DNA of 32,415 nt from a virus. Its lineage: Duplodnaviria > Caudoviricetes. The notes under the pieces were generated by a model that was not told where the DNA came from, did no database searches, and saw only the letters and a list, made by a program, of their open reading frames with translations. Below are positions 1,269 to 28,420 of the stretch, piece by piece. Positions within the stretch are counted from its first letter, which is position 1. Each line of letters begins with the position of its first letter. Location: IMG/VR virus record IMGVR_UViG_3300033475_000112, positions 1-32,415 of that record. The stretch is one strand, 5' to 3'. A program made the translations under genes and the position numbers.

Positions 1269-2213
1269 TCAGTTGTGTAAAGAGAAAAAAACGGGTCCGC
1301 AGGTATCGCTCCAAGTGTCTGCGACGTAGGTAATCGAAGCATTCAGAGCTCCGCCCGATGTGACATTGTTGGTGGCCGCTCCTGCAGTACATTGAGGCAG
1401 GAAGCGCCGCGTGGCTCCCGCCAGAACGGCCGTGCCTGCGTTTCCGGTAAGCCCCACGTTGTAGCGGGAACCGGCCTGCACGGTGCATGGAGCCGTCCAG
1501 GATGCCGTAATGTCGTTTCCTGCTGCCGGCGCAAAGGTAGTTCCGACTGTCGGGTTCACATGACACACGAGCGTTCCGCTCGCATCGTAGATGCCCAGGC
1601 TGTAGAGGGCTGCGCTATTGTCCGCTGTCGCTACACGATAGGTGATTTTGTTTGCCGTCACCGTGACGGGAAACCAGATCGACCACAGCCTGGTCTGGTT
1701 GGCCACCACCTGCGATGTTGGCGAACCCAGCTCATTTGTCCATTCGGTTGCCGAGGGAACCTTGGCCGCCACAAAGGCATCCGTGGCCACTTTGGTGCTC
1801 GCATCGGTGCTCGGCTGCGTGGTCGCAGTTATCCCATCGGGCAGCGCCGAAGTGCCGCTTACCGCTGTGCCGGCGGCTGCATAATACGCAAGCTGGTTGA
1901 GGGCGCCTGAGTTCACGGTGCCGGATCCGCCTGCGCTGCCAAAGCAATTCAACGGGCACGGCAGCCAGGTGCCATCGTTGCCGGTGCCATCGCTTGAGTA
2001 GTAGATGCCGGCATGCTGCACGCGCCCCACCGCTGCGCCCACGCCTCCAGATCCCGCCATGGGCAGCCAGGTGCCATCGCCGCCGCTGCCGTCGCTTGAA
2101 TAGAACGCGCCCACCTTTGCGGGCCGATAGCCTGCAGCTCCTACCGCGATGGTGAGTGCCGCCGCGATCGCCAGCACAAGCCATGCATTTCTCAATCTTT
2201 GCTGCTTCATCAT
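1269..2213 (-). CDS. Tail fibre-like protein with N-terminal signal peptide
   Basis: AAGGAG SD. N-terminus MMKQQRLRNAWLVLAIAAALTIAVGAA. Gly/Ser/Thr-rich, with the fibre-type motif ATTQPSTDASTKVATDAFV and a beta-rich C-terminal domain. Confidence 0.65.
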   Translation of the reverse strand: MMKQQRLRNAWLVLAIAAALTIAVGAAGYRPAKVGAFYSSDGSGGDGTWLPMAGSGGVGAAVGRVQHAGIYYSSDGTGNDGTWLPCPLNCFGSAGGSGTVNSGALNQLAYYAAAGTAVSGTSALPDGITATTQPSTDASTKVATDAFVAAKVPSATEWTNELGSPTSQVVANQTRLWSIWFPVTVTANKITYRVATADNSAALYSLGIYDASGTLVCHVNPTVGTTFAPAAGNDITASWTAPCTVQAGSRYNVGLTGNAGTAVLAGATRRFLPQCTAGAATNNVTSGGALNASITYVADTWSDTCGPVFFSLHN

Positions 2214-2222
2214 TTGCTCCTT

Positions 2223-5078
2223 TTACTGGATAACTCTTACGTTGTAAGTACTCGCTGTGGGTGTTCCTGCGATGGCGGCGCACACCGTCACATTCACAGT
2301 TCCGGTCGATGGCACCCAGGCCCTCCAGTAGAAAGCATCACCTGGGTAAGTGTTCGGCGTTGCCATCACTGCCATGCCCACGCTGGCGCCGGTGAAACTC
2401 GAAGAGACTAAAGAGCACGCGCCGGCGGCGAGCGCTGATCCTCCAACTGATGGGCTTATACCAGCGATGGTTGTCGCTACCGGCGTTCCTCCAACTTTTG
2501 TCCCGATCGGCATGTTTGGCGCAATGTCGATGTAGGCCCAGGCGACCCACATATCGTGGCCGCTTATAACCGAGCCGTTTCCTATGCCAATGTCGCCCGT
2601 CCTGCCGGTGAAATCGAACGGGATTGTGTAGGTCTGAAGAGACGCCGAGCACGTGACGGTTTGAGAGAAAGCCACCACAGATTGAATTTCGATTTGGGGA
2701 ACAGCGCTTGTGATCCCGCCTGGACAGAGAAGAGAGATGTACAGCGTTCCCTTCGCTGCCGGAAAGTTCGTCCCGATCGTGAAGAAACCCTTGTGGCTTG
2801 GATTTGTCGGATATGCCTGCTGGAAATTCTGGTAAACCCCATTCGACTTTAAAAGTATCTCTCCCCCGCTGGGCGAGTTGGCGTCATCTTGATAGAGGCT
2901 GCTCCACGCCTGACTGCCGGGAACGCCGAGAATGAAGTCGTGCGGCCAAAGGAAAAGATCTTCGTGCCGGTAAGGCACGGCCGGATAACCATCTGCGGCA
3001 AAATCCGGCTCCTGGCCGCCAAGGACGTTTGGAATTCCTTTCTGCGGCGTGAGCGTCGTGTAAGCAGGGTAAGGAATGCCGCTGGGATAACTGAAACCAT
3101 TGTTGTATCCGAGCAGCGTGTTGCCCAGGCCCTTGTTGTTCACGGGGCTGTTCGCCGAAAGCCCGTCAAATACATTGCCGATCCCGAAAAGATTGATCTG
3201 TCCGCCGCCAGGAAAACAGTAGCAGGTTGAGAAGCGGATATCGAGCCACGCCTGGTTGTTCGTGTCTGCCGATATGCTCATTTCTCCGCTGATCGTGTAG
3301 CTGCCCGAATCGGCCCGCACGCCAAAACGAGAGTCGTTGACCATGGACCAGCTTTCGAGCTCTTGGATGTTGATGATCCAGCCAGGCCCATCTGAAAAGT
3401 TATTCGGGGCATACATGAACTGTGGCCCGGCCAGCGTGGTGTATTCCACATGATCCATCTCGCTCTCGCCGCCGTTGTAAGTAATCCATGGAAAGCGCGT
3501 GATGAAAAACTTCAGATGGTCCCAATGCTGAAAGTCTCCGCCGGTGGTGTAAAAATTATTAATTTCCGATCCGCCCTGAAAGACTCCGAAACTCTGCCCG
3601 TAAAAGCTGATGTGATCTGCGTGCAGGCCGTACTGGTTCCAGGCGCCCTGGTTGAACATCGAGCAGGTTGTGCCGGTAGAAGTCGATCCCCCTGTAGAGC
3701 TGAAATTGATGTTCTTCATCACCGGGTACTGGCTGCCAGCCGTCTGGCTTGGATTAGGCCAATCCGTCGTCTTGGGGTCGTTATTGTCGAATGCGATCGC
3801 GCAGTTGCCGATGTTGGTCGCGACCGGGAGATCAAGAAGCGAGAGATAAGAATGCGCGCTTGCTACCGTGGTCACGGCCGGCGCAGCCAGGGTCACGATC
3901 TTCCAGGTACTGGCGCCGCCGTTTGATGTTCCCCAGCAGGGATCCACGGATGCAACGGTGGTGGCAAGATTGCCCATCACCGTCACCGTCGCGCCGCTTG
4001 AGTGTGTTGCCGCTGTGGTGCCGGACTGCCCGCGCATGACCGTGATGGTCGAGATTCCGTTGGTCTGTGTTCCCACGTACATCAGGATTTCGGAATCAAC
4101 TTTCAGATACCCAAAGATGGTTGGCCATGAGCTCGACGTTGCGCCGGTCAGCGCGATGCTGGTTTGTGTCGTGGTGGTGATCGCTGCAGCCAGGGCAGTT
4201 GTCGTCACCGTGGCGCCGGCGCCGCCGATCAGAATATTCTGCCCTACGTCGTTGCAGCCGATCGATGCCGTTCCGCCCGCGGTAATCACCGCGCTTCCGC
4301 TTGTCATCGAGCCGCCATCAAACCAGCGCCCGGGCCAGCGGTGCAGCAGATTGGGAACGGTGGTTGTCGTGGGAGTCACCGACCTGTCCAGCAGAAAAGA
4401 AATGTCCTGTATCAGCCAGGACTGGTTGAAGGTGAAAGATCCGTTTATCGATGGGTCGGGCACATGCAAAATGTCATATCCCGGCTTTCCCCTGATCGTG
4501 ACTCCATACGAAACCGTCGCCGTCCCGCTGCCGGAAGGCTGCCCCACAAAAGGAACGCCGGTGTACTCGATGGTGCTGGTCAGATAGCAGCCGCCTGGCG
4601 GCTTGGGAAAGTAGACCACTGCCGGCGCAGAATTCCCCGTCTTATAACTTTGCGCTACTGTCATCGCCGCGACGATCGCGTTGTGGTCATCGGTTATGCA
4701 ATCGCCCTTCGCGCCGTAAGTCAGAACGTTGATTTGCGTGTTCGCATTCAGGATGATGCTGCCCCTGGTATCAGTTGCGCCGACTCCGCAGAAAGCACCC
4801 GAGCAATTTCCCTGCAGCTGGCCCGAGCTGCCGGCTGGGTTCGCGGCCGTCCCGCCGGCTGAGACACATTGATTGGTGGCGATGTTGTAAATCGGTGTCG
4901 TTCCGCCGCAGCCTGTCGGCCATCCAATGCCCGTGTGGGGGTTGATGGGATGGCTTGGCTGCGCGTGTCCGAATAGGACGGCAAAAAAGAAGAGAAGCAG
5001 GAAAAGCATCACTTGCGCAAGCAGCCGTTCGCGCGGGCCAAAAACCTTGGCACTGTCCTTAAACAACACAAAGCGCAT
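2223..5078 (-). CDS. Tailspike/depolymerase-like beta-helix protein (start uncertain: 5078, 5012 or 5009)
   Basis: Pectate_lyase_3-type motif INVLTYGAKGDCITDDHNAIVAAM...VYFP, and a Gly/Asn/Thr-rich beta-helix-like body. The track start at 5198 overlaps the upstream gene by 140 nt, so a later start is more likely. Confidence 0.75.
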   Translation of the reverse strand: MRFVLFKDSAKVFGPRERLLAQVMLFLLLFFFAVLFGHAQPSHPINPHTGIGWPTGCGGTTPIYNIATNQCVSAGGTAANPAGSSGQLQGNCSGAFCGVGATDTRGSIILNANTQINVLTYGAKGDCITDDHNAIVAAMTVAQSYKTGNSAPAVVYFPKPPGGCYLTSTIEYTGVPFVGQPSGSGTATVSYGVTIRGKPGYDILHVPDPSINGSFTFNQSWLIQDISFLLDRSVTPTTTTVPNLLHRWPGRWFDGGSMTSGSAVITAGGTASIGCNDVGQNILIGGAGATVTTTALAAAITTTTQTSIALTGATSSSWPTIFGYLKVDSEILMYVGTQTNGISTITVMRGQSGTTAATHSSGATVTVMGNLATTVASVDPCWGTSNGGASTWKIVTLAAPAVTTVASAHSYLSLLDLPVATNIGNCAIAFDNNDPKTTDWPNPSQTAGSQYPVMKNINFSSTGGSTSTGTTCSMFNQGAWNQYGLHADHISFYGQSFGVFQGGSEINNFYTTGGDFQHWDHLKFFITRFPWITYNGGESEMDHVEYTTLAGPQFMYAPNNFSDGPGWIINIQELESWSMVNDSRFGVRADSGSYTISGEMSISADTNNQAWLDIRFSTCYCFPGGGQINLFGIGNVFDGLSANSPVNNKGLGNTLLGYNNGFSYPSGIPYPAYTTLTPQKGIPNVLGGQEPDFAADGYPAVPYRHEDLFLWPHDFILGVPGSQAWSSLYQDDANSPSGGEILLKSNGVYQNFQQAYPTNPSHKGFFTIGTNFPAAKGTLYISLLCPGGITSAVPQIEIQSVVAFSQTVTCSASLQTYTIPFDFTGRTGDIGIGNGSVISGHDMWVAWAYIDIAPNMPIGTKVGGTPVATTIAGISPSVGGSALAAGACSLVSSSFTGASVGMAVMATPNTYPGDAFYWRAWVPSTGTVNVTVCAAIAGTPTASTYNVRVIQ

Positions 5079-5643
5079 TAATTTTGTCCGGTGTCCCATC
5101 GGGTCCAATCTCCGTTGCAAAGTTGAGGGTGATTGCCGTTCCCACCGAACTCCAGTCGGCTGGGTCGAGAATCGTGCCGTTGTAAAGTACTGCGACAATC
5201 AATCTGGCGCCAGGGGCCACATAGTTCACCCCCGGCACAGCGCCCGTGCAGGCAATCACTTTCAGGAACTGCAGCGGGAATCCGTAAGGTGCGACAATCT
5301 GCGCCGCCTCGCTCAGATCGATTATGCCGGCGCCGTCGAAGCGATAGTTGCCCGCCTGAATCACGTTCTTCTCGGCGTCAAGTACTGCAACCTCGTAGAA
5401 GGTGACATCTGGACCTGGAGTAATCACGTCATTGCCATACAGGTCAATTGAGAGCGGCGTGGATCCGACTTGGGGCCCTACGAGTTTGGGAATGGTCGCA
5501 TCCGCAAGGATGCATGTTCCCGGTACCGCCGGAACGATCGGTCCGGATCCGCAAAGAGTGATGCGCAGATAGCCGCCCATCTCCGCACCCGCGAGAATGG
5601 ATTCGAGATTGGCGGTGAGCGTGATTTGCGGAGTCAGTGCCAT
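5059..5643 (-). CDS. Putative tail fibre attachment/structural protein
   Basis: GAGG SD; beta-rich; LYGNDVITP..TFYEV and YNGTILDPADWSSVGTAITL resemble fibre N-terminal anchor modules; lies directly upstream of the tailspike. Confidence 0.55.
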   Translation of the reverse strand: MALTPQITLTANLESILAGAEMGGYLRITLCGSGPIVPAVPGTCILADATIPKLVGPQVGSTPLSIDLYGNDVITPGPDVTFYEVAVLDAEKNVIQAGNYRFDGAGIIDLSEAAQIVAPYGFPLQFLKVIACTGAVPGVNYVAPGARLIVAVLYNGTILDPADWSSVGTAITLNFATEIGPDGTPDKINALCVV

Positions 5644-5650
5644 TTGCGCC

Positions 5651-6055
5651 TCACTTGAAAAACCAGACTGGACCTACATGCGCTGTCCGTGGATGGTCAT
5701 CCGGATTGCCGAGTATTTCTTTCTTGAACCATGGTTCGACCGAAAAAGCCGGATCGATGTAGAACAATGCCCCCCCGGTCAGATCCTCAGAAATCTCCGA
5801 AGTGTAGAGCTCATCCAGGCGGTTCAGAAACACCCGCACATTGCCCGTGCGTATATTCGGTATATCCGGCGGGTATATCGTTCCCCGCTTCGCCGGCGCC
5901 GTCTGGGCAACCTCGAGCCAGTCACCCCATCCCTGGAAAACACGGTTGCGCAGAGTCTGGGCTACGGCCAGCATGTTGTTTACGCCGCCATACCGGCTTC
6001 CCTCTTCGATCGCAAATTCTGCGATCTTCGCCCGTGTGAAGGTGTCGAGATTCAT
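5651..6055 (-). CDS. Cell-wall hydrolase, SleB/Hydrolase_2-like
   Basis: E...MLAVAQTLRNRV, DLTGGALFY.DP, W, and VGPVWFFK match the Hydrolase_2 pattern (AVA.V..NRV / D.T.GA.YY / IG.H.F). Confidence 0.75.
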   Translation of the reverse strand: MNLDTFTRAKIAEFAIEEGSRYGGVNNMLAVAQTLRNRVFQGWGDWLEVAQTAPAKRGTIYPPDIPNIRTGNVRVFLNRLDELYTSEISEDLTGGALFYIDPAFSVEPWFKKEILGNPDDHPRTAHVGPVWFFK

Positions 6056-6375
6056 TACTCGTCCGTTTCTATCCAGCGGTTCAGTTTGCGCGTCATGGAG
6101 ATCTGCATATCCAGACCCACTTTGCCGTGAGCAGTGTTGAATATTCTGCGATCGCCGTGCTTGTCCCGATAGAGGAAAGCCCCGACATAGCCCACCAGTC
6201 GCCGGCCGCCCGTCTGCTTTTGAAAATCTCTGACCAACTTGGTCAACTGGCGCGTGGCATCGTCATATTCCTCGCTGCAGTCGATCGCTGTCAGGCCGCT
6301 CTTCTTGGCGCGAAGCTGCTTGTCTCTCATTTCGAGATCCGGCCAGTTCTTCGCGCCTGGCACAGTTTTGTTCAT
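6055..6375 (-). CDS. Hypothetical protein (106 aa, MNKTVPGAKNW...)
   Basis: C-terminal part of the 195-aa track ORF. ATG at 6375 with GGAGG SD and ATGA overlap with the upstream stop; TAATG coupling to the downstream gene. Confidence 0.65.
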   Translation of the reverse strand: MNKTVPGAKNWPDLEMRDKQLRAKKSGLTAIDCSEEYDDATRQLTKLVRDFQKQTGGRRLVGYVGAFLYRDKHGDRRIFNTAHGKVGLDMQISMTRKLNRWIETDE

Positions 6376-7253
6376 ATCGGCCTCCCCACCTTGATCTGGC
6401 GATAGACCTTCAGCTGCTGGCGGTACCAGCTGCCGGCTTCCCCGATCGGCCGGCCGAAAGCTTTGTCCACTTCTTCTTCCGTGAGGATCTCGGCCACAAT
6501 CAGCACGAGCATGGCCGTGCGCCATCCGCGGTACTTCTCCTTGGTGGCCACGCCATATTCGTCGAAGCGCATGATGCTCCACTCGGGGCCAGGATCCTGG
6601 AGGCTCGTGAGCGTGCGGCGAACCTTGCGGCCTTCGCGGCAAGCCATGTAGTTCTCAAAAAGCAGATCCTTCTGCCGCTGTGTGCTCACGTGGGCCAGCT
6701 CCTCGAGATAACCGGCCTCATCCATCGCCACCGGCGAAACCCAGGCATTGACTCCCACCAGGCCGTGACGTGTCCAATCGTTCAGCCAGATCCGCGCATC
6801 GCGGTGTTCTTCTTCCCGCGCGTCGACGCCGGCCGCGCGAAGCTTGCGGAGTACTTCGCTGGCATAGAGCACATTCACCATGCGCTCTTTTTCGTGCTCC
6901 TCTGCCCAGCGTTCCTGACCTGGCAGGTGCTGCCGTTTGGCTTTCTCGCGATTCGATTCGTAAAGCTCAAGGTTTTCATCGACCCATGCGGATGGATCGT
7001 TCTCGACCCTGCGCAGCATGGAGATGGCGGGGTCATAGTGGCCGGGCGTATCGAACTCCCGATCAAAATCGAGGTTCTTCATTTTCTTGCGATCGAGCGT
7101 TCTTTGCCGCACGGCCGCCCAGTCGAATTGATCCCAGTCGCGATCGCGAATTTCCCGTCCGCCCTTCAGCTCCGCCGCCGCTCGTGCCAGGCCTGGGTCA
7201 TACTTCAGCGTTGGCGCGCTCTGGTGTTGGATCGGGATGATGATATGCGGCAT
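6372..7253 (-). CDS. Hypothetical phage protein (about 293 aa)
   Basis: Long ORF in operon orientation; GAGGA SD before the ATG at 7253 (MPHIIIP). No recognised motif. Confidence 0.75.
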   Translation of the reverse strand: MPHIIIPIQHQSAPTLKYDPGLARAAAELKGGREIRDRDWDQFDWAAVRQRTLDRKKMKNLDFDREFDTPGHYDPAISMLRRVENDPSAWVDENLELYESNREKAKRQHLPGQERWAEEHEKERMVNVLYASEVLRKLRAAGVDAREEEHRDARIWLNDWTRHGLVGVNAWVSPVAMDEAGYLEELAHVSTQRQKDLLFENYMACREGRKVRRTLTSLQDPGPEWSIMRFDEYGVATKEKYRGWRTAMLVLIVAEILTEEEVDKAFGRPIGEAGSWYRQQLKVYRQIKVGRPI

Positions 7254-7357: not shown

Positions 7358-7363
7358 CCTGGT

Positions 7364-8095
7364 TTACTTGGCCGGTTCCAGGTTCGGATCGATCTCCGTC
7401 ACCACCGGTCCGGTTCCCGTGCTCGCCGCTCCCGCGATGGCCTGGTTGGGCGATAGCGGAGCTGCTGCTGGCGCTGAGGTCGTGGCCTGGCCTTCCGGGT
7501 CCGCGGCGGCCGGCTCTTCGGTGGTTGCCGAATCGGTGGCCTTGACTGTTTCGCCAGGCGCTGGCTGCACATCAAAAGCGATCTTGATGCTAGTCAGCAC
7601 GGGCGCCGGAGGAGGCGGTGGAGGAGGATTGGTGATGTTTACTTCAACTTCCTCGGTATCGCTCAGCTCCTTGCCTTCGGCGGTTTTGAGCGAAACCTCG
7701 ACATTGGCGATGCCATCCGCCAGGGCCGTAATTGTTGCCGTTTCGCCGTCCGGATCTTCAACGAGTGATGCGACTTTTTCGTCGTCAATGATGAACGTAG
7801 CCGGCGGCATGACGAAATCTGCCGGCATGGGGTTGCCGTTCTGGTCAAATCCAAGGACGGAAGCGATGGCTACCTGTCCCGCTACGGTGAGAATTACTGT
7901 TCCTGTTACTGGCGCCATGGCGCACTCTCCTTGTTGGGTTTTGAAAACAACTTTGATTCGTGTCAGCCGCGGTCTATGTCCGCGCTCGCGTTCTCGCAAT
8001 TCCTCGAGCAGCTCTGCGGCCTCTCGCTCTTCTTGCTCGATGCGCTTCCTTCGCGCAGCAAACCAATCGAGGATCCTGCGTTCCCAGCCCTCCAT
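7364..8095 (-). CDS. Ig-like (Big_2-type) domain protein, putative virion decoration; second in-frame start at 7918
   Basis: ATG at 8095 overlaps the upstream TGA (TGATG) and has a GAGGAG SD; the ATG at 7918 has an AAGGAG SD. VASLV...ATITALADGIANVEV resembles Big_2. Poly-Pro linker and acidic low-complexity tail. Confidence 0.65.
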   Translation of the reverse strand: MEGWERRILDWFAARRKRIEQEEREAAELLEELRERERGHRPRLTRIKVVFKTQQGECAMAPVTGTVILTVAGQVAIASVLGFDQNGNPMPADFVMPPATFIIDDEKVASLVEDPDGETATITALADGIANVEVSLKTAEGKELSDTEEVEVNITNPPPPPPPAPVLTSIKIAFDVQPAPGETVKATDSATTEEPAAADPEGQATTSAPAAAPLSPNQAIAGAASTGTGPVVTEIDPNLEPAK

Positions 8096-10428
8096 CACTG
8101 CTGCTCCTCCTCGCCCGTCTGTTCTTCGGCCGGCTGCTGCTGCTCCTGAAGGGGCGTAGCGATCGCGCGCGCAATCAGCGGGGCATAGTGCTGTGGACTG
8201 AGATTGTTTCGCGCTGCAAAGTCGAGCAGCTTGCCCACGTTGGGGTTGGTTGCAGCTTGTCGCATCACGTAACGCATGCCATCGGCGAGAGCTGCGCCGG
8301 TCACTGCGCCCGTCCACGCATCCGCTCCGACGGTGTGAGCGATCGCGGCGCCGGCCATGGCGCCCATGCCGCCGCGGCCGATGTGCCTCCCCATCTCGAG
8401 CATGGTTTCTTTGGCCACACTCGAAGCCGCGCGTGCTGTCGAAGCATTTGAGAGCAGCATCGTGATGCGCTTCAAATTCGTGACGCCTTCCGATCCAATG
8501 AGCCGCTCTGCATCGGCGCGGTTCGTGCCTTTGCTTAGCCAGGCCTCGAGCGCCTTGGTGCGTCCGGTCATGATCCGCGGCAGGCCTCGCTCGCTTTCCT
8601 CGGACGTGATGCCGTTCATCATCCGCTCTGTCACGTTGTGCAGGTTGGCGAGCGTCATCGAATCGCGCCATGCCGATCGAGCTGCCCGATAGTCCGTTGG
8701 CGAAATGGCGCTGGCATGGCGGGTCATGAGATTGTCGATTGCCTCATTGGCTTCGCTCAACCTGGTCTCGGCCGCTTCGACGGCTTCCATGCTCGAGGCC
8801 GATCGAATGACCTTTTGCGCAGCTTTGACCTGGCCATTGAATTTTGAGAAATCGCCGCCGCTTACGCGATCGAGGGTTTCGTAAATCGGCTTCGCCGCGG
8901 CCTGCACCTGTGCTGCAGCATCGCCGAATGTATGGACCTGGCCCACGGCCGCATTGACGTCCGCCGGCGCGAAGCGCTGCACATAAGGACTCGCATGGTA
9001 GAGTCCCAGCTGCTCCTGCAGGGCCTTGAATTGGTCATCGATCAGGCTCTGTTGTTTCGTTGGCAGGCTGTCATAAGTCGGACTCTGGCGCAGATCGTCA
9101 AGCTGCTGCAGCCAGGCCTCGGCCTCGCGCGGATCCGTCGTCTGGAGATTCCCGCCGCCGCCTACGATCTCACCACGTGCCTCCGGAGTGCGCTGGGTAC
9201 GGATATCGGCGCCGGTGCCGCCTTCAGCACCTGGGATGGGGTGGCCATTCACAAACTCGGCCGTGCGTGTGGGTGCGCTCTCGGCCGTGAATCGTGGATC
9301 CTTGAAAGCCGCGCGCGGTTCCTGGGCTGCAGAGTGCGCAATCTCGCCGGTAGGCGTTTCCGTCGTTCCTGGTCCCTCGAGTGTGAAGGTGAAAGGTTCC
9401 GCGCCTTCGCCGGCGCCGAGCCTGGGCACGCCTTCTGCTGCAGGCTCTACAGCGCGGTTGCCGTAAAGGTTGACCCATGTCAGTGCGTTCCCTGCTCCCT
9501 GGCGCGCCGTGTTGCCCAGAACGGCCTGGGCGCCGGTTTGCTGAGCAGCTGCGATCTTCGGAGCGCCGGCTGCATTGGTGCCTGTCGGCTCGCCGGCTTC
9601 GTTCACTTGTTCGGCCAGGGCGGGGATCTCCTCGCCGGCGACGTTGAGGACTTTGGGGGCGCGCTTCAGGAGTGCCCTTCCTGCAGCTCCTACGGCCTCT
9701 GTAGCGCCGCGCGTGGCTCCGCCGAATACGGCCGCCTCGGCAGCCTGGCCGGGATCCATGGTGTGGCCATACGTTTGCGCGCCCATCAGGGTGGCGTCTT
9801 TTGCGACTTTCAATCCGATGGCCATCAGTCCCGCAATTTTTGAATTGCCTTTGATGACCTGAGCCACCTGCTGGGCCTGTTTCAGATGCTCGGCGGTGTC
9901 GACGGCGCCGACGGCCGGGCCCACCATTTTCAAAAGTCCGTCAGTACCCATGTACTCGAGCACCTGTTCACCGATGGCGCCCACGTTTTGCCAGAATCCC
10001 TCCGGTGGCCCTCCCGATCGCAACCAGTTCGCGGCATCATGCAGATGCTTGTCGACGGTTGCAGCCAGGGCGGTCTTGTTGGGCTCTCCTTCGCCGGTTG
10101 GGTTTCCGATCGTCGGCGGAGTGCTGGGCGTCGAAATCATGTCGAGCACATTTCCCACCAGGTGGGCGGCCGAATTGATGACACCGGATCCGGTTCCACT
10201 GAGCGGCTGCAGCCAGGATGGATCCTGCGAGGAGTCGGTGATGCGCTGCATGCCAGTCGGCGCGGGGGCGGATCCTGGATTCGCACCCCCGGCCGGCTGT
10301 GAGGCGGCGGGGGATGAGCCCGCGGCCAGCTTCGCACCTGGTGGCAACGGAGGCAGACCGCCACCCACCGGTGCGAGTTTCGCTCCTGGAGGCAAAGGGG
10401 GAAGATTTAGGGCTGCGCGGGTACCCAT
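8095..10428 (-). CDS. Large internal virion (DNA ejection) protein, putative
   Basis: 777 aa, Ala/Gly-rich and helical, with a duplicated N-terminal LPPLPPGAKLA. Third of three genes after the nozzle and GNAT genes, as in podovirus ejection modules. Confidence 0.65.
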   Translation of the reverse strand: MGTRAALNLPPLPPGAKLAPVGGGLPPLPPGAKLAAGSSPAASQPAGGANPGSAPAPTGMQRITDSSQDPSWLQPLSGTGSGVINSAAHLVGNVLDMISTPSTPPTIGNPTGEGEPNKTALAATVDKHLHDAANWLRSGGPPEGFWQNVGAIGEQVLEYMGTDGLLKMVGPAVGAVDTAEHLKQAQQVAQVIKGNSKIAGLMAIGLKVAKDATLMGAQTYGHTMDPGQAAEAAVFGGATRGATEAVGAAGRALLKRAPKVLNVAGEEIPALAEQVNEAGEPTGTNAAGAPKIAAAQQTGAQAVLGNTARQGAGNALTWVNLYGNRAVEPAAEGVPRLGAGEGAEPFTFTLEGPGTTETPTGEIAHSAAQEPRAAFKDPRFTAESAPTRTAEFVNGHPIPGAEGGTGADIRTQRTPEARGEIVGGGGNLQTTDPREAEAWLQQLDDLRQSPTYDSLPTKQQSLIDDQFKALQEQLGLYHASPYVQRFAPADVNAAVGQVHTFGDAAAQVQAAAKPIYETLDRVSGGDFSKFNGQVKAAQKVIRSASSMEAVEAAETRLSEANEAIDNLMTRHASAISPTDYRAARSAWRDSMTLANLHNVTERMMNGITSEESERGLPRIMTGRTKALEAWLSKGTNRADAERLIGSEGVTNLKRITMLLSNASTARAASSVAKETMLEMGRHIGRGGMGAMAGAAIAHTVGADAWTGAVTGAALADGMRYVMRQAATNPNVGKLLDFAARNNLSPQHYAPLIARAIATPLQEQQQPAEEQTGEEEQQ

Positions 10429-19437: not shown

Positions 19438-20610
19438 TTAGCTGATGAGTGTGGGAGCGTCGATGTAGCGCACACGCCCGACCGTGTCCGGAACCACTCC
19501 AACCGCGAAGTTGAAGTTGTAGGCCGTCGATCCGCCGATCATCATGGCCGGGTCGGAAACGCTGGCATCGTCGTAGCGCTTGGTGATGACCTTCAGATTC
19601 CGCCAGTCACCATCGCCCAGCTCAGTCATTTCCTTGGCGCCCATCGAAATGGTGATCACGCCATCCTTGCCGTAGATGTAGGTACGGAAAGCGGTCACGC
19701 CGGCATGGCCCAGGTAATTCAGGGTCTGGGTCACAATCGTGGTTTCGTAGAAACGCACGCCTGCCCATTCCAGGGCTTCTACATACTCACCCTCGCCGCC
19801 TGGCAGCTCCTTCAAGAGATCCACGCCCTCCATGTGCCGCTTCAGGACATCGGTGAAGGAATTGTTGGCCGCGTCGTTCAACGCATCGCCCCAGCAGAAT
19901 GGGGTGATCAGGCCGCAGAACTTTCCTTCTTCCATCGGCTTCACATTGCGCCCGCGCAGCGAGGCCACGGCCGAAGTGATGTTGTTTTTGTTGAAGGGCA
20001 CGTTGAAAGCGTTCTGCACGCTCACGCTGGCGTCGATCACATTCAACCCATCCGTGGTGTTCTTGATGAGATAGGCCACGGTCTGCGCGCACTGGTAGGC
20101 CAGCTCCTTGCCGCCGTTTTCAAGAGCGGGGTCGATGGCCAATTGCATGCTAAAGCGCGAATAGTTGAGGTAATCGGCGTAATTGCCGATGACAATCTTG
20201 TCCGTGAGGATGTTGATCGTCTCGCCGCTGGTGACGGTGCCTTCGGCGGCCTGGGCCAGATCCGGACCGAAGCTCACATATTCGAACAGGTTGAGCGTGT
20301 TGCCGGAATTCTCAGGCAGAGGCCTGCGCTCCACGCATCGATAGTGAGGCGTTTCGGCCTTCAGGTTTTCCACGAAATTCTTGTCGTAGTAATTGACCTG
20401 GGTCTGGGTGAGATTCGAGGTTTGGTTCGAGGCTGGCGAGTAGCCGGCGCCGAGCTGCGTCTGCTGGGCCAGGGCGCTGCCTTGTTCGTGGATCAAGAAG
20501 GCGATGGCTGATCCCCACATCGCCAACACATAGAGCACCGGCCGCAGAACCTTCTCTACGATCCAGTTTCTCCGCTGAAGGAATGTCTCATCCTTGCGAA
20601 TCGAAATCAT
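19438..20610 (-). CDS. Major capsid protein (N4-gp56-like, HK97 fold) with hydrophobic N-terminal leader
   Basis: LPENSGNTLNLFEY, EGTV.SG, YADYLNYS, WAGVRFYETT and TYIYGKDG motifs; size; position after the scaffold; GGGAG SD. Confidence 0.85.
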   Translation of the reverse strand: MISIRKDETFLQRRNWIVEKVLRPVLYVLAMWGSAIAFLIHEQGSALAQQTQLGAGYSPASNQTSNLTQTQVNYYDKNFVENLKAETPHYRCVERRPLPENSGNTLNLFEYVSFGPDLAQAAEGTVTSGETINILTDKIVIGNYADYLNYSRFSMQLAIDPALENGGKELAYQCAQTVAYLIKNTTDGLNVIDASVSVQNAFNVPFNKNNITSAVASLRGRNVKPMEEGKFCGLITPFCWGDALNDAANNSFTDVLKRHMEGVDLLKELPGGEGEYVEALEWAGVRFYETTIVTQTLNYLGHAGVTAFRTYIYGKDGVITISMGAKEMTELGDGDWRNLKVITKRYDDASVSDPAMMIGGSTAYNFNFAVGVVPDTVGRVRYIDAPTLIS

Positions 20611-20653: not shown

Positions 20654-21541
20654 TTAGCTAGCCCGTCTTTTCGGTTTATTGTCTTGCTGAGCGTAAAACT
20701 CTGAACACCGCACAAACTCCGGGTCGGTGGTCATCAACCGTTTCATCGTAGGCGCGCTCATCTTGGCAATCTGCTCCCGCGAATATTTCATGCGATTGGT
20801 AGGCTTCGCCGGCGGCTGTCCGCTGAATTGACTGGGACGGACGCTGGTCGAAATCCGGGTGGGAGTCTTCGGTGGCGCGGGCGCGGGAGCATTCCGCTCG
20901 GGCTGCGGTTCCGGAGGCTGCGTTTCGGTTTCATCCTCTTCTTCGGGCTTTGGTTGCAGCAATTGGGCTGCGGTCAGCTCTTCAAAGGCCTGCTTGTAGT
21001 GAGCGAGATTGGTGGGATTCATGCCCTGGGTACGCATGTACCGGACCAGAGTGTTTTTGTTGTGCTCGGAGGGAAACCATTCTGGCGTCTCCTCCGCGAA
21101 CTGGGTGGCTGCTGCGATCGCCGCGCGGCTGATGCGTTCCTCGCGGTCCGCCGGCGCGTTTTCGGTCGCCTGGCGTAAATTCTCCATCGGTCCAACCTGG
21201 GACTCGATGATTCTGGTAACGGCCCTGTCGACGGTGGCCGGATCATTCAGCTCGGCCACCGCTGTCATGCGATCGGCCGCGGTCAGAGGCTTGGGGGCGC
21301 CAGGCCTGGGAGCAGGGGGGGTGTTGCCAGGCCCGGCGCCGTTGCCTCCGTTGTTACGCCTGAGTTCGGCGATGCGCCGGTTGGCGTTCGCCTGAGAATC
21401 GGCCAGGGCTTCGGCAATCTGATCCTTGGTGCCACGGAATACGGAAATGGGTACGCCGTCCGTCGGATCGTCCGAGGTGACGGTGAGCTTCCATTGCGGT
21501 ACGCCGTTTTTCGGCGCCAACTCTTCCCATTGCTTCGGCAT
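20654..21541 (-). CDS. Capsid scaffolding protein, putative
   Basis: Directly upstream of the capsid gene; helical with Pro/acidic linkers and a short C-terminal helical motif (YSREQIAKMS...DPEF); GAGGA SD. Confidence 0.65.
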   Translation of the reverse strand: MPKQWEELAPKNGVPQWKLTVTSDDPTDGVPISVFRGTKDQIAEALADSQANANRRIAELRRNNGGNGAGPGNTPPAPRPGAPKPLTAADRMTAVAELNDPATVDRAVTRIIESQVGPMENLRQATENAPADREERISRAAIAAATQFAEETPEWFPSEHNKNTLVRYMRTQGMNPTNLAHYKQAFEELTAAQLLQPKPEEEDETETQPPEPQPERNAPAPAPPKTPTRISTSVRPSQFSGQPPAKPTNRMKYSREQIAKMSAPTMKRLMTTDPEFVRCSEFYAQQDNKPKRRAS

Positions 21542-21544
21542 GGC

Positions 21545-22656: not shown

Positions 22657-22855
22657 GGTCAACTCCAGGAATGGTTTCATGTGGCCGGCCGATAATCTGA
22701 TCCATCAGAATGCGCGGCCGATATTCTTTGAGCACTTCAGGGCATCTGGGATTCACACACTGCCAGGTCATCTCCCCTTCGGGATTCTCCATCAGATGGC
22801 CGCAACGGCCGCATGTGATCGAATCGATGACAACCCGGTGACCGGCTCCGCTCAT
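22619..22855 (-). CDS. Zn-ribbon small protein
   Basis: CGRCG...CVNPRC; GGAGG SD overlapping the end of the portal gene. Confidence 0.6.
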   Translation of the reverse strand: MSGAGHRVVIDSITCGRCGHLMENPEGEMTWQCVNPRCPEVLKEYRPRILMDQIIGRPHETIPGVDHEQKTTAADDSA

Positions 22856-22858
22856 ACT

Positions 22859-25003
22859 TCAACCTCCCTCCGGCGCGAATACACTTTGCTCGATCGCAGT
22901 CCGGTCCCATTTGCGTTCATCCCAGAGCGCGGCTTCGTCTGAAGCTTTGCCCAGCATTTCCTTGGCCAGGTCCGCTTCCTTCGATTGATCGATCTCCGCG
23001 GCCTTGGCGTTGTGGCGCGCCCCGATCGCGGCGAGCTGGCCCTGCACACGCTGCACGCCTGGATTGTTCTGCTGGTACTTCTGTGACTCTTGCGGGGTCA
23101 TCGGCCGGATGAGTTCGCGCGCATCCTTCCATTCGCTGACTTCCATGAACATCTCGAGGAGCAGCTTGACGTCGACCATGTAGCCCATGGCGTTGAGCTG
23201 CTGCACCAGTGGCGCATTCTCGAAAATCTGCACCATGAGCGGAAGCGCCTGGGCCATGGCTTTCTTGGCTGCCAGCTTCGCGCCGGCCAGGCAATCGAAC
23301 ATATCCTCGGACTCATAGAAGTTCTGCGCGTCGAGTTCAAACGCATCGCCCAGCTCGCGGCCCAGGATCTCGCGAATCTTGGCCGGCGTCATACGATCCT
23401 TCACCAGGAAATCGATGAGCTCGATAAGGGGCAGAAGTATCCCTTTGACAAAGTGGCCTACAGGTCCCTGGATCTTGCCCGCGTTCGCTGCGATGATGCC
23501 GCCGGCGCCGGTCGCGGTCCTCGCCGCCGAGCTACCGCCCTTGCCAGGCAGGCTGCCCTGGGTGAATGCTTCATCCGCGCCCGTGGTCGATTGCGCATTC
23601 TGCGCCGCGGCCTGCAGGACGGTGAAGACTTCGGGCGGCGTTTTCGGCATTTCGATAATGCCGAATGCATCGCGCACGCTCTGGCCGGCCTTGGTATCCA
23701 CGTCGACGATGCCGCCCAGCCTCATGCGGATTTGCTGGGTGGGCGCGTTGGCGCCGCGATCGCGCGCGTACATCGGATTGATAGCGAAGCTCAAAAGGTC
23801 TAAAACGGCGTCCACTAAACCTTTTTCGATGCGCTGGTCGCTTCCGGCCAGGCGGCCCACGCCTATGCCGTACCCCGCCTTGGGAATGTTCCAGAAATTT
23901 GCGGAGAAGTAAGGAATGCAGGGCAGGTTGTGTTCCTGGCTGCGAATCAGCAGGCCGGTGATTCCGTCCGTGGTGAGAATCGTGTGGATGTAGCTGCGAT
24001 CATGCCGCTCGGCCATCATGATGGGTGCTTCGAGAGGATCGGCTGAGCTGACTTCCTCTTCGTTCTGCGCGTGGTGGATGGCGTAGTTCTGGCCGCCCAG
24101 GTTCTGCATCACCTGGCTGGGATTCGCGGCGTTCTGATCGCGGTGGGCGAAGAAAAAGGCCTTCAGCTCCTCTTCGCTCGGTATGTCATAGCCGCCGATC
24201 TGTTTGCCGTCCTCATCGAATTCCTTTTCCTCGCGCAGGTCATCGAGATCCTTGAAAGTCGGATAGCTGATGTGGATGACATACTTGGCTGACTTGTGCA
24301 GCGCGTTCGGTTTCTTCCAGGTTGGATCCACGAGCACGGATCCGAGATCGCAGCGCTCGAAGAAAATGCCTTCCTTCGTGACTTCAGTGTCGGTCACCAC
24401 GCGCTCATCGGATTCTTTGGTGTGAATGGTGAGCTTGCCGCCGAAGGGAAGTGTTTGCGTGATGGGCGCCTGCTTGGGGCTGCGCACCTTTTTCACTTTC
24501 GTTTCGCGTGTCCAGCCGGCTTTGACGATGACGGTGCCAAAGTTCGTCATGTCCTCAAGCGCCAGCTCTGCCTCGGCCTCGAAATCCGCATCGTCAAGCA
24601 GTGTCCCGTAGAGCGTAGTTTTCGCGCGCGCGGTGGTTTGGGAAGTCGCAGGCCTCGGCCTCAGCAGGAAAGGCGGATTCTCGTAAAAGATGCCGCTCTT
24701 CATCGCCGGTACCAGCGAGTTCACATGCTTGGCGACGGTGAAGCGGGAGATATTGGCGCGGGCAACCGTGGATCCTTCGAAGGACTGGTTGGTGCGCGGC
24801 GACTGGTAAAGTACATCGGCTTCGCGCCAGTGTAGGTTCCACTGCTTTTGATCGAGGTAGGTTTTCGCGCGCTGCAGGTCCTGGATCACCAGCGCCACGG
24901 CCGCATCATCGGTGTACTTCGGATCCAAGCCAGGGCCTTGCAGCTCGACATCGGATCGCTCGATGATCGCCTGCCCATTCACTGCTCCCGCCAATGTCGC
25001 CAT
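22859..25003 (-). CDS. Portal protein
   Basis: 714 aa between terL and scaffold; YGIGVG, ARTATGA and Gln-rich C-terminal barrel typical of podovirus portals; GGGAG SD. Confidence 0.88.
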   Translation of the reverse strand: MATLAGAVNGQAIIERSDVELQGPGLDPKYTDDAAVALVIQDLQRAKTYLDQKQWNLHWREADVLYQSPRTNQSFEGSTVARANISRFTVAKHVNSLVPAMKSGIFYENPPFLLRPRPATSQTTARAKTTLYGTLLDDADFEAEAELALEDMTNFGTVIVKAGWTRETKVKKVRSPKQAPITQTLPFGGKLTIHTKESDERVVTDTEVTKEGIFFERCDLGSVLVDPTWKKPNALHKSAKYVIHISYPTFKDLDDLREEKEFDEDGKQIGGYDIPSEEELKAFFFAHRDQNAANPSQVMQNLGGQNYAIHHAQNEEEVSSADPLEAPIMMAERHDRSYIHTILTTDGITGLLIRSQEHNLPCIPYFSANFWNIPKAGYGIGVGRLAGSDQRIEKGLVDAVLDLLSFAINPMYARDRGANAPTQQIRMRLGGIVDVDTKAGQSVRDAFGIIEMPKTPPEVFTVLQAAAQNAQSTTGADEAFTQGSLPGKGGSSAARTATGAGGIIAANAGKIQGPVGHFVKGILLPLIELIDFLVKDRMTPAKIREILGRELGDAFELDAQNFYESEDMFDCLAGAKLAAKKAMAQALPLMVQIFENAPLVQQLNAMGYMVDVKLLLEMFMEVSEWKDARELIRPMTPQESQKYQQNNPGVQRVQGQLAAIGARHNAKAAEIDQSKEADLAKEMLGKASDEAALWDERKWDRTAIEQSVFAPEGG

Positions 25004-25017
25004 GCGCCTAGCTCCCT

Positions 25018-25374
25018 TCAGTAGCCTGCATCATCGCGTGAATAACTACGTGAACTCAAGGCACGTGCTTCTCCTGGAGTTCCATCGATGCCCGGTAGCA
25101 GCTCTTTGACCATCTGCTCAGAGATTGGAGTGATGCTGTAGATTGCTGCCAGCCCAAAATATCTTGTGAAGCCTTCGCGGATGACTTTGCCTGACGAGGT
25201 TAAGTCCGGAACATCTACGCGAAACAACACGCCGCTGCCAAAGGCCTGTTGAGATAGAAAGCCGACTATTCTCTGGTGACCGAATAACTCAACAAGCGCC
25301 CAGGATTTGAGGTCAGTAGTCGGCGATTCTTCACTTTGCGGCAAGAGAACAAGCTGGTTGGCTTCTTTGATCAT
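25018..25374 (-). CDS. Conserved phage hypothetical protein
   Basis: WALVELFGH...RVDVP...AIYSITP pattern recalled from small phage proteins of unknown function; GAGG SD and ATGA overlap. Confidence 0.7.
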   Translation of the reverse strand: MIKEANQLVLLPQSEESPTTDLKSWALVELFGHQRIVGFLSQQAFGSGVLFRVDVPDLTSSGKVIREGFTRYFGLAAIYSITPISEQMVKELLPGIDGTPGEARALSSRSYSRDDAGY

Positions 25375-25727
25375 TGTTTCGCTGCCTCAATCTCTGCGCA
25401 GTGTCCGCAATCAGCGTCAGACAAATTGCTGATTTGTGTTTCACATAGAAGGCCAGCTGGATCGTACACAACAGGATTTGTGGTTTCAGATAGCACATGG
25501 CCACAGCCATAGTGCGTCACGGTTGTCGTCCCAGGCCTTTTCTTCATCGGCTCCGGAATCACAGCGATGCCAGTCATATCGATGGGGCCGCGTCCGTGCT
25601 CCTTCGAATCGCCTACTTCGAAGGCGTGCGAGTAGCCTGCAGCGAATAGTTTCGCGCGGATCTCCCTGTAGGCCGGCTCGCAGACCTCGAGTTTCACATA
25701 GGTGTGCGTAGTTCGCAGGCCCATCAC
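25371..25727 (-). CDS. Hypothetical phage protein with C-terminal Cys cluster
   Basis: THTY..LEV...AY.EIR.KL..AGY.HAF...IDM.GIA N-terminal part; CGH...C...CGHC C-terminal part; overlaps both neighbours by 4 nt. Confidence 0.65.
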   Translation of the reverse strand: MMGLRTTHTYVKLEVCEPAYREIRAKLFAAGYSHAFEVGDSKEHGRGPIDMTGIAVIPEPMKKRPGTTTVTHYGCGHVLSETTNPVVYDPAGLLCETQISNLSDADCGHCAEIEAAKQ

Positions 25728-25945
25728 ACCTTCCCATTCAATGCGACTGCGGCATTGGCCGTCATCACAGCCTCGCGCACCAGGCGAATCGCGGCCTGCT
25801 GATCGGCGCAGGTTGGTGTGTTTTCGAGAATCGAGAAAGCAAGATCTGCGCCCGCGTTCCGGATGGCCACGTATTGCGCCTTTTGTGCTTCAGTCGGCGC
25901 GTGATATGTGAAAATGTCATTCAGGTTTTCTTTGGTAACTGGCAT
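25724..25945 (-). CDS. Acb2/Tad1-like helical hairpin protein (putative nucleotide-signal sponge)
   Basis: FTYHAP...Y..IR...LA..I...P...AI..VREAVMTANAAVA matches my recollection of the Acb2/Tad1 hairpin-domain pattern; GGAGG SD. Confidence 0.65.
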   Translation of the reverse strand: MPVTKENLNDIFTYHAPTEAQKAQYVAIRNAGADLAFSILENTPTCADQQAAIRLVREAVMTANAAVALNGKV

Positions 25946-26433
25946 TATTCAAACCTCCGGAGGATCACCTTTGCCAAACTCAGGGCCTGTTCTTTCGTCA
26001 ATTGCACACATCCCTCCGGATACTGCGTAACTTCGAACTGCTTGATTTCCCCGGCCGGTGTGAGAATAACTTTTGAGGAAGAAACACTGATTGGCTCGTC
26101 GGCGCGCTCCGGCTGCCCAAGTAATGTGTATCCATCCTCGAAAGCTTTCGCCGGCGAAAAAGAAGTGTAGTGGTCTTCGTAAATGACCAGGTATCCACCA
26201 GGCTCGGGCTTGAACCGTTGTACCCATGCATCTGACATATAAACAAGCCAGTGCAGGTCCTCCCACTGAAGATGAACCCGGTTTGATCTCATTTCTGCCG
26301 GATCGCTGACACATGCGGGCCGGTGTGTGATTTCGACAATCTTGGCTGCGCCAACGACCTTATGGCATTTCCACGCCGGTAGTTCGGGTAGCTCGCCATT
26401 TATCGCGTCTATGAGGCGTTCTTCACTATTCAT
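25945..26433 (-). CDS. Conserved phage protein (CHKVV.A.KI...GGY.V.YED.Y.SFSP...FE.GY family)
   Basis: Motif visible in the translation; ATGA overlap with the terL stop. Confidence 0.7.
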   Translation of the reverse strand: MNSEERLIDAINGELPELPAWKCHKVVGAAKIVEITHRPACVSDPAEMRSNRVHLQWEDLHWLVYMSDAWVQRFKPEPGGYLVIYEDHYTSFSPAKAFEDGYTLLGQPERADEPISVSSSKVILTPAGEIKQFEVTQYPEGCVQLTKEQALSLAKVILRRFE

Positions 26434-28088
26434 CCGCTCAACCCCGGCATGGCATCGCTCAATTCATCGTGCTTCGGCGGCTGCCACTCTTCTTCCACAA
26501 CTTCAATGACCGGCTCCCGTTCGGCATATTGACCGCGGCCGTAAACCCGGTTATAGGCGTCCTGGTCCAGCTGCGCCTGCCAGGCATCATCATCGGTCAT
26601 TTCGAAGCCATCGGCGGCGATCGATGCCGGCAGGCAGGCCGCCACGCGACTCACAACCGATGCAATCTCTTGGTCCTCGACCATCCCGAAATGATAGAGC
26701 TGCCGAAAAACCTCCTGGGCGTTCTGGATCCCGTCAGAGAAAAGCAGTCGGCCGGCAATCAGGTGAGGTTCCGCGCTCTTGATGGCTAGGGCGCGCGCGG
26801 TCGAATCCTGCAGATACTCCATCCACTGGATCTCGATGCGCCAGGCATCCTCGAGAGCCTGGTTGCGGATGTGCTGCTCCATCGATCGCGCACCAGGTGT
26901 TTCCTCGATCTGGATCCGGTGTGTCTCCCATTTGCGGGCCAGGCTGATCACGCACCGCGAAAGGGCGGTGGGGGTGAATGTGTCGCGCACCACTTCCATG
27001 ATGGTCATGCGGCCGGCCTTCTCGGCGCCCACGGCCGCGGCGGCATATTTGCACTCGGCATACTCGAAGCGCCATGCGATATGGATCTTGCCGTTGTCCG
27101 GCGTATCGTCGTCGCAGATTTTTGCAGCCTCGAGGCGTTCCATGGGGAAGGTGGGTTTGAAATTGCCTTCGGCGATGTTCATGTATTGCGTCCAGAACGA
27201 GTTTTCATCCAGGTTCTTCTCACTTCTCAGGAAGTTCCAGGACAATTGTTCCGGAAATTGCAAAATCACATCATTTTCGGTCAATTGATCGTCTTCGAGC
27301 TTCAGAGCATGCGGCTTGCGGATGTAGGCAGGCCTCCAGAGCAGGACCCAGCTGTCATCCATCTTCTGAATCATGTCGCCATAGAGGTCCATTGGCCCAT
27401 AGCGCGTACCTGTGAGGTCGAGGAAGCCATGCTCGCCCATCATCTTCAGGTTGATGTAGAAGTTGGTGCGCACTTTGCGCAGGCCGAAAGGCGTCTGCGA
27501 GTTGCGGTTGTCCTGCACATCCTCCGATTTGAGAATGTCCGGATGCCAGCCGCTGAGTGATTGCTCAATAGACACGCCTTTGACGGTGGGGTCGCGGCGG
27601 TATTTGGTCCTCGCCGGCGTGGTGAACTCGCCCGCCTTGGGCATTTTCAGCAGCACGTGTTCTGGAAAGAGCTGGTGGAGGATCTTCTGTGGTGTTCCTT
27701 CGGGGCAATAGAAGTGGCTGGCGACTTCGGCCACGAATGCATCGGCCAGGGGCGAGTCCGGCGAGTTTGAAGCCGTCATCACCATCACCGCGATCTCCGG
27801 GAAACAGAGGATCCACTGCACGGTGTCCGCGATGTTGAAGCTGGTTTTGTAGGTTTTGCGCGGAAGGAGAATCATCCGCTTGTGCTTGCGATGTTGATCC
27901 TCGATCGGCTTCGATGGATCTTTCTTGATGAAGACGTCGGCAACTTCGCGGTGCCAGCGATCACTCACCTTGTCATAGCCGAGCACATATTTGGTGAGCC
28001 AGAACAGATCTGTTTGCGCGCGGTGGCGAAGCTCATCGCGATAAGCGGAATCCTCGCCGATGCGTGCAACGTCTATCGCGTTTGTCAT
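26430..28088 (-). CDS. terL: Terminase large subunit
   Basis: Walker A variant LLPRKTYKTS, Walker B region GWHPDILKSEDVQD, coupling motif TGTRY...DLY, QYMN linker; upstream of the portal. Confidence 0.88.
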   Translation of the reverse strand: MTNAIDVARIGEDSAYRDELRHRAQTDLFWLTKYVLGYDKVSDRWHREVADVFIKKDPSKPIEDQHRKHKRMILLPRKTYKTSFNIADTVQWILCFPEIAVMVMTASNSPDSPLADAFVAEVASHFYCPEGTPQKILHQLFPEHVLLKMPKAGEFTTPARTKYRRDPTVKGVSIEQSLSGWHPDILKSEDVQDNRNSQTPFGLRKVRTNFYINLKMMGEHGFLDLTGTRYGPMDLYGDMIQKMDDSWVLLWRPAYIRKPHALKLEDDQLTENDVILQFPEQLSWNFLRSEKNLDENSFWTQYMNIAEGNFKPTFPMERLEAAKICDDDTPDNGKIHIAWRFEYAECKYAAAAVGAEKAGRMTIMEVVRDTFTPTALSRCVISLARKWETHRIQIEETPGARSMEQHIRNQALEDAWRIEIQWMEYLQDSTARALAIKSAEPHLIAGRLLFSDGIQNAQEVFRQLYHFGMVEDQEIASVVSRVAACLPASIAADGFEMTDDDAWQAQLDQDAYNRVYGRGQYAEREPVIEVVEEEWQPPKHDELSDAMPGLSG

Positions 28089-28420
28089 TGCGGCCCTGGA
28101 AGCGCGTCGATTATTTTTTGGTCGATCGATGGCTTCACTTCGAGATCGACGACGCGGCCGTAGTCTTCCCAGGATGGCCAGTCCGCATATTGACCGATGA
28201 CAACGTCCTTGAAGTCGATAACGATTTGGCCACAGTGCGGCGGCATCTCTCGCATCGGGTCATTCGTGAAATAGACGGCCGTTGGCGACTTATAAATCAA
28301 GTCAGCTGGGCGCCAGAGGCTGACCCATGGCGTGAGCAGCTCGCGGATCGGCGCCGGTACAGCTGAGCCGGCCGCCAATCCTGCAAGCATTCCTAAAAAG
28401 CCGCGTCGCGTGGTTCCCAT
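28085..28420 (-). CDS. Small protein with twin-arginine (Tat-like) N-terminus
   Basis: MGTTRRGFLGMLAGLAAGSAVPA; starts directly after the upstream TAG; ATGA overlap with terL. Confidence 0.65.
   Translation of the reverse strand: MGTTRRGFLGMLAGLAAGSAVPAPIRELLTPWVSLWRPADLIYKSPTAVYFTNDPMREMPPHCGQIVIDFKDVVIGQYADWPSWEDYGRVVDLEVKPSIDQKIIDALPGPQ

Follow-up and report, generated by a model that had tools for sequence, protein, structure and literature searches.

Why would virion proteins of a tailed phage begin with export-type N-termini, when in the established view tailed-phage particles are finished in the reducing cytoplasm? The question is raised by IMG/VR record IMGVR_UViG_3300033475_000112 (Duplodnaviria; Caudoviricetes), of which positions 1 to 32,415, hereafter the window, were analysed; its minus strand is the late operon of a soil short-tailed phage. 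An earlier note had assigned such N-termini to four late products: a fibre-like protein, a tailspike, the major capsid protein (MCP) and a twin-arginine protein. All four leaders are real, yet they represent three independent traits and not one export system. The strongest result is the signal, disulfide and adaptor pattern of the tailspikes, which together with the fibre would probably fold with disulfides in the periplasm and dock onto the particle at lysis. The capsid leader comes second and is independent and less settled; the twin-arginine open reading frame (ORF) is the third trait. The features concerned are as follows, with a slash marking a predicted cut or junction here and below.

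2223..5078, minus strand: tailspike, 951 amino acids, with a depolymerase-like beta-helix fold and 16 Cys predicted to form 8 pairs (PF12708, structure model, Cys covariation)
4962..5078, minus strand: spike Sec-type signal peptide, 39 amino acids, ending VLFGHA/QPSH (in-house heuristic)
5059..5643, minus strand: spike adaptor, 194 amino acids, unsignalled, predicted docking partner; its stop overlaps the spike start
1269..2213, minus strand: fibre-like protein, 314 amino acids, tail-fibre repeat, 6 Cys (repeat; Pfam matches of homologues)
2133..2213, minus strand: fibre Sec-type signal peptide, about 27 amino acids, exact cut uncertain (heuristic, homologues)
19438..20610, minus strand: MCP, 390 amino acids, HK97 fold (phrog_1357, fold matches)
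20449..20610, minus strand: capsid leader, 54 amino acids, basic/amphipathic helix, 17-residue uncharged stretch, A-L-A, junction QLG/AGYSP
28085..28420, minus strand: twin-arginine-leader mini-protein, 111 amino acids (TIGR01409; family of capsid-fragment mosaics)

Signal peptides were called with an in-house heuristic, not SignalP; behind it stands the Sec/signal peptidase I (SPase I) rule of a basic n-region, an uncharged h-region and small residues at −3 and −1. As a control, 4/361 homologues of 13 core proteins were flagged, all of them false by eye. The four N-termini flagged in the window are all present in the sequence, and by 13-residue Kyte-Doolittle hydropathy they are the most hydrophobic among 37 minus-strand ORFs (spike 3.25, fibre 2.85, capsid 2.22, twin-arginine ORF 1.75), confirming the earlier assignment; the next ORFs score 1.72 and 1.65, which makes the twin-arginine ORF marginal. 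The spike start, previously placed at about 5009–5078, fits the ATG at 5078, which overlaps the adaptor stop, as in many relatives, and agrees with the 951-residue database call. The fibre start, previously given as 2213, may instead be 2210, judging by Shine-Dalgarno spacing and database call P0121.

Tailspikes of related phages were surveyed by anchoring on the unsignalled adaptor (signal-like in 0/23 homologues by the heuristic) and taking the first long gene after it in 47 loci; no such gene follows in 7 loci, and 9 are duplicates or lack an adaptor match, leaving 31 distinct spikes. By the same heuristic 23/31 carry a signal and 7 do not; the remaining spike (L166) was set aside, as its signal region appears frameshifted. 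The signals are divergent in sequence and conserve form only, ending in small-x-small/Gln with Gln at +1 in 21/23. Cysteine content of the mature spike has a median of 2.0% (0.9–3.2) in signal-bearing members versus 0.49% (0.25–1.1) in the 7 unsignalled ones, and the Cys count is even in 19 of the 20 complete signal-bearing spikes. Cys pairs had been remarked on in both fibre and spike; the mature forms hold 6 Cys in 287 residues and 16 in 912, respectively, and the spike pairs covary. Among all 105 Cys-Cys correlations, computed across a 55-sequence spike alignment, the top seven are the sequential pairs 92-97, 127-164, 275-381, 426-472, 619-621, 785-810 and 888-933 (r 0.65–1.0; next 0.24), and an eighth pair, 57-71, is invariant (15/15). 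Spike cysteines appear to be gained and lost in pairs, as expected of disulfide-folded periplasmic proteins. The Q[IL]N...YVG...TIQ.A N-module family occurs both with and without a signal, and a Cys pair is found in 4/5 of its signal-bearing members and 0/7 of its unsignalled ones.

The fibre repeats part of this pattern. Its signal is found in 10/14 homologues (the window's own included; heuristic), all with even Cys, and one unsignalled homologue begins at the mature end, MTSKYKPLKAG. Signal-bearing homologues match tail-fibre families, Gp53-like_C above the cut-off and Collar and K1-lyase_C below it. Read from their sequences, spike and fibre both fit the form of Sec/SPase I substrates. The fibre repeat is common to unsignalled fibre-like ORFs of other phages. 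A search from the fibre locus was discarded as a set of relatives and serves as context only: it returned mostly unrelated phages, without signals, having only a short repeat in common.

If the spike is exported, it must still reach the particle, and the adaptor is the candidate partner. All adaptors have a common N-domain and a C-domain of one of two types. The spike module that follows type A (19 loci) is always of the NP.T.I.W type, and the one after type B (12 loci) is always of the Q[IL]N type, 5 with and 7 without a signal; adaptor C-domain type equals spike N-module type in 31/31 loci. Type B precedes both kinds, and therefore the same adaptor type accompanies cytoplasmic-looking and signal-bearing spikes. 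Three variants of the arrangement were seen. The class IV phages L177–L181 and L190 (class refers to the capsid leader, below) have two ORFs in the adaptor region and an unsignalled, Cys-poor spike, though their capsid has a leader. L184:6143-9470 holds tandem spikes of the same module family, one unsignalled and one apparently signalled. In P0155, P0162, P0185, P0190 and P0143, one spike body is joined to several different N-terminal modules, and a signal peptide precedes every one of them.

The mature spike is modelled as a beta-helix (pLDDT 83) whose best fold matches are the phage depolymerases 6tku (E 6.5e-11) and 9qrm, with low TM-scores (0.23/0.35); a sequence search of the mature spike against the PDB gave no match. 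Podophage depolymerases (6tku and 9qrm from Klebsiella phages, LKA1 gp49 4ru4 and CBA120 TSP4 5w6h) have the same beta-helix fold, an N-terminal docking module and a late-operon position; unlike them, the spike here has a cleavable-type signal peptide and eight predicted disulfides. Known podophage tailspikes are, to our knowledge, cytoplasmic products that lack signals.

From the signals, their conserved form, the Cys pairing that tracks them, the tailspike fold and the adaptor/spike covariation, all seen in sequence, we infer export, disulfide formation, virion attachment and the timing of attachment. Spike and fibre would be exported to the host periplasm via their Sec-type signals and fold there with disulfides; lysis would then mix the compartments, and both proteins would dock onto cytoplasm-built particles via the unsignalled adaptor. 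Late docking has precedent, because P22 tailspikes join finished heads outside the cell. Periplasmic disulfide maturation of receptor-binding proteins with late attachment had already been proposed for this phage, and the signals, the Cys pairing and the hydrophobic N-termini lend it support.

Exported spike and fibre could also work off the particle, as secreted depolymerases or adhesins, either remodelling the host capsule or removing it at lysis. Such a role would suit the spike fold, which also matches secreted GH110 glycosidases, as well as a ParA-like gene (by inspection) that suggests temperate life and the separation of both proteins from the assembly site by export. It is nonetheless unlikely: the window holds no other spike- or fibre-like gene, translation of the spike overlaps that of the adaptor, the spike N-module tracks the adaptor C-domain in every locus and recurs on unsignalled spikes, and signal-bearing homologues match tail-fibre Pfam families.

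Several observations weigh against periplasmic folding and late docking of spike and fibre. Even Cys counts are found in 5/7 unsignalled spikes too. A second homologue set, with a signal called in 50/75, agrees with the spike survey in that Cys is even in 43/50 of the signal-bearing members, but it is even as well in 16 of the 25 others, and many of those 25 appear to have truncated start calls. The related phages are not independent, so these statistics overstate the case, and adjacent-gene linkage alone could yield the adaptor/spike covariation. The spike fold matches that follow the depolymerases are the GH110 enzymes. Only 2/5 incomplete host-like metagenome-assembled genomes (MAGs) yielded a VKOR oxidase gene (DsbB not searched). 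According to the available text of PMC10172136, crAss001 tail hubs carry disulfides, so virion disulfides need not imply export. Disulfides alone are no proof of export, but the predicted spike disulfides here track the signal.

The capsid leader poses a different problem. The MCP scores 47.1 bits against TIGR04387 (N4-gp56 family), below the cut-off of 60; it has the HK97 fold, with fold matches among podophage capsids, on a model with a mean pLDDT of only 58.8. GGGAG precedes the ATG at 20610, and no ATG, GTG or TTG lies between 20496 and 20373, the latter inside the conserved body; with no usable start between leader and body, the leader is obligatory in the window. No hidden start codon was found at the junction in 15 loci examined. 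Of 86 capsid loci, 61 have a leader, one of them lying at a contig edge, 2 are truncated and the other 23 genuinely lack a leader. The homologue check once proposed for the leaders finds a signal in 23/31 spikes and 10/14 fibres; for the capsid, 23/84 scorable loci are leaderless, with an in-frame stop 4–24 codons upstream. The closest leaderless loci keep GGGAGC directly before M-[AP]-G-[YF]-S-P, that is, they start at the junction, and leaderless sisters at 80–84% identity share all core genes. On a quick tree of 113 MCP bodies (78 with a leader, 35 without, after thinning of class I and exclusion of truncated calls), leader presence changes 12 times, at least 6 of them forced, and leaderless rows are nested in leader-bearing clades. 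Repeated loss to exactly the junction suggests that the junction is the mature N-terminus.

The 117 distinct leaders fall into five classes, are hydrophobic and span 45–89 residues across the family; their common feature is the junction, with a bulky residue at −2, a small one at −1 (G/N/C/A/S), a small one at +1 and an invariant Gly at +2. Position −3 is R/Q in 65/72 class I leaders and A/V in 19/19 class IV leaders, so class I departs from the Sec/SPase I rule of a small −3 residue, and class IV conforms to it. The class I leader has a dN/dS of 0.32 versus 0.04–0.13 in the body, pointing to purifying selection, and its sequence is conserved at individual positions (F in 68, W in 65, P in 69, Y in 66 and S in 67 of 69). 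The constraint is weaker elsewhere (class II 0.74, from 3 sequences; class IV 0.48, where the ungapped body value of 0.43 is unreliable). The leader is modelled as one helix, residues 8–49, followed by a low-confidence linker.

Our leading reading, held at somewhat less than even confidence, is that the leader is a cleaved membrane tether or propeptide. The leader, a trait separate from spike export, would keep newly made MCP bound to the inner membrane; cut off by a host protease at bulky-small/small-Gly, it would leave the same N-terminus as in leaderless relatives. The membrane-tethering pro-sequences of sporulation sigma factors offer an analogy. PHROGs and Pfam found no protease gene among the window ORFs, in line with the earlier remark that no prohead protease gene is evident. 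Three observations run counter to a tether. Class I leaders have A-L-A at −9 to −7 of the junction, which fits a Tat-type signal, as does the twin-arginine-like motif RR-x-W-V-V (34/72 class I leaders, 0/41 in classes II–IV and 1/4 in class V, scored by a TatFind-like pattern). Moreover, no protease gene tracks the leader in 21 leader-bearing and 11 leaderless phage sets, nor does any other gene family in these 32, several of the leaderless sets being short. A search of the ESM Atlas gave no look-alike of the leader, which is not evidence of novelty.

A helical assembly aid or a retained domain is a possible but less favoured account of the capsid leader. Extended to all leaders, so that the capsid leader is delta-domain-like or retained and the spike signals are cytoplasmic folding or timing elements, a non-trafficking role becomes very improbable. 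The position-by-position conservation of class I, unlike ordinary signals, and its model as one 42-residue helix would agree with it, as would the helical delta domains of HK97 and T5 (available part of PMC3185693). Spike and fibre signals, by contrast, end in small-x-small/Gln and come with paired cysteines, and the phages have a scaffold-like gene of their own whether or not the capsid bears a leader.

Three further late genes bear on capsid export, the remaining named option.

26430..28088, minus strand: terminase large subunit (phrog_38), unsignalled, 0/30 homologues signal-like
22859..25003, minus strand: portal (SU10_portal), unsignalled, 0/32 homologues signal-like
20654..21541, minus strand: scaffold-like protein, assigned by position, without family match, unsignalled

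Because portal, scaffold and terminase are unsignalled, capsid export is unlikely, and a function other than those named is rated lower still. The earlier suggestion of capsid export with maturation by signal peptidase is also rendered doubtful by R/Q at −3, by the leaderless sisters and by the absence of a Cys signal: a capsid disulfide was considered and rejected, as body Cys do not track the leader (mean 2.35 versus 2.46; even in 33/78).

These results bear on whether one coordinated membrane or export pathway could handle capsid, spike, fibre and twin-arginine protein together, the capsid being matured by signal peptidase or by Tat. Of 26 phages, 17 combine a capsid leader with a spike signal, 6 have the leader alone, 2 have the signal alone and 1 lacks both at its first spike, though its second spike appears signal-bearing. 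Capsid leader and spike signal are uncoupled, because 8/26 phages have one trait only, and the earlier grouping of the four proteins as one system does not stand, since the traits vary independently and the twin-arginine ORF is confined to 3 distinct loci of those compared. A shared pathway would account for the co-occurrence of all four leaders here and for the 17 phages with both traits. The RR motif, 17-residue uncharged stretch and A-L-A of class I and a TatC gene in 4/5 host-like MAGs also speak for it. It is improbable, given the uncoupled phages, the lack of the RR motif in classes II–IV, capsid Cys that ignore the leader, unsignalled core proteins and leaderless sisters with the same core genes.

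The twin-arginine ORF is an accessory gene of patchy occurrence. Its leader passes TIGR01409 (19.8 bits versus a cut-off of 16.7), whereas four relatives do not score. It was found in only 3 distinct loci among those compared, at different positions, and an exhaustive search gave 8 matches, 4 of them plausible relatives. Relatives of the ORF are permuted mosaics of MCP segments (mosaic versus MCP, E 8e-14 in L021, 1.8e-6 in L005, 1.9e-6 in P0213, 4.9e-5 in P0211, and 0.008 and 0.011 in two more), and the mini-protein profile matches MCP fragments back (E 4e-4 and 1.4e-3). The mosaic claim rests on these relatives rather than on the window's copy, whose own match to the capsid is weak (hhalign probability 6.8%; 1/500 shuffles as high), with VIGQYADW resembling MCP VIGNYADY. 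On this sequence evidence the ORF is rather likely to be an accessory capsid-fragment mimic and not a virion part. It may be such a mimic or a by-product of shuffling, and a decoy role is a guess. Other twin-arginine-like small ORFs, at L105 (minus strand, near 20322) and L163 (plus strand, 15285), have no capsid match. An Acb2/Tad1 hairpin anti-defence sponge gene (25724-25945, minus strand; above the Pfam cut-off) lies near the twin-arginine ORF, within an accessory block that separates the terminase gene from the portal gene.

The nearest described case to the capsid leader, by analogy, is that of Staphylococcus phage 80alpha, for which the available text of PMC5744158 reports capsid and scaffold leaders cut by the host protease Prp and a viable pre-cleaved capsid mutant. 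Both systems would place a leader on an HK97-fold capsid, need no phage protease and tolerate its loss, as leaderless relatives imply here. The 80alpha leaders in that text have 13–14 residues and an F/A site and also occur on the scaffold, whereas those here have 45–89 residues, are hydrophobic, end at bulky-small/small-Gly and leave the scaffold-like protein bare. A Prp-type leader was rejected on the same grounds, with no L27-like F/A site at the junction and no leader on the scaffold-like protein. Assembly of the T4 prohead and of filamentous coat proteins begins at the inner membrane (available part of PMC3185693), but in T4 the anchor is a connector chaperone rather than a capsid leader, and filamentous coats are not HK97-fold. 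Endolysins with Sec signals or SAR domains, such as fOg44 Lys44, are late phage proteins that leave the cytoplasm through host Sec and are kept outside it until lysis (available part of PMC6116005); they are lysis enzymes and not virion parts, whereas here the endolysin lacks a signal and the spikes have one. Among TIGR01409 twin-arginine signals, the leader at 28420 differs in its passenger, a short capsid-segment mosaic of no known family. In searches of open-access papers we found no account of tailspikes exported by Sec, of a hydrophobic leader on an HK97 capsid or of capsid mosaics with a Tat leader, and the available portions of PMC3556154, PMC10792529 and PMC10194101 hold nothing on exported virion spikes.

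Spikes exported, oxidised and attached at lysis would make host Sec and disulfide systems part of virion assembly, leave new phage unarmed until the cell bursts and make disulfide-stabilised depolymerases available. The family offers natural controls: a single adaptor type accompanies spikes of both kinds, signalled and unsignalled, and near-identical capsids occur with and without a leader. A fuller picture, which we regard as doubtful, is of a large Acidobacteriota podophage family with two-compartment virions, in which heads form on the cytoplasmic face from membrane-tethered, host-cleaved MCP precursors, periplasmic disulfide-locked spikes join only at lysis, and Tat-leader mosaics bait host capsid sensors.

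The host is likely Acidobacteriota, because all six MCP matches in a genome collection fall in Acidobacteriota MAGs (6/6), two of them on contigs of 159 and 227 kb. The identical sequence is contained in a 43.1-kb record (L074), in which L074:2657-3322 (plus strand) and L074:765-1646 (plus strand), both outside the window, are by inspection presumably ParA-like and ArdC-like. The relatives G001–G003 have a replication-initiator-like ORF. Phages of this family are possibly temperate phage-plasmids. The late operon also encodes a 1101-residue tail protein and the lysis genes.

344..787, minus strand: endolysin (PF00959), without N-terminal hydrophobic segment
784..1245, minus strand: holin-like protein, inferred from its C-terminal hydrophobic segment and its position before the endolysin

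Lacking an N-terminal hydrophobic segment, the endolysin would be holin-dependent. An accessory gene for 244 residues (7364-8098, minus strand; likely start 8098, not 8671) encodes a charged N-terminal part, a hydrophobic stretch and a proline-rich tail and has a homologue at the same place in G001. The unsignalled 194-residue product of 28856-29440 (minus strand) has no family match and is possibly a virion protein; its gene is conserved upstream of the packaging genes in 21/32 phage sets.

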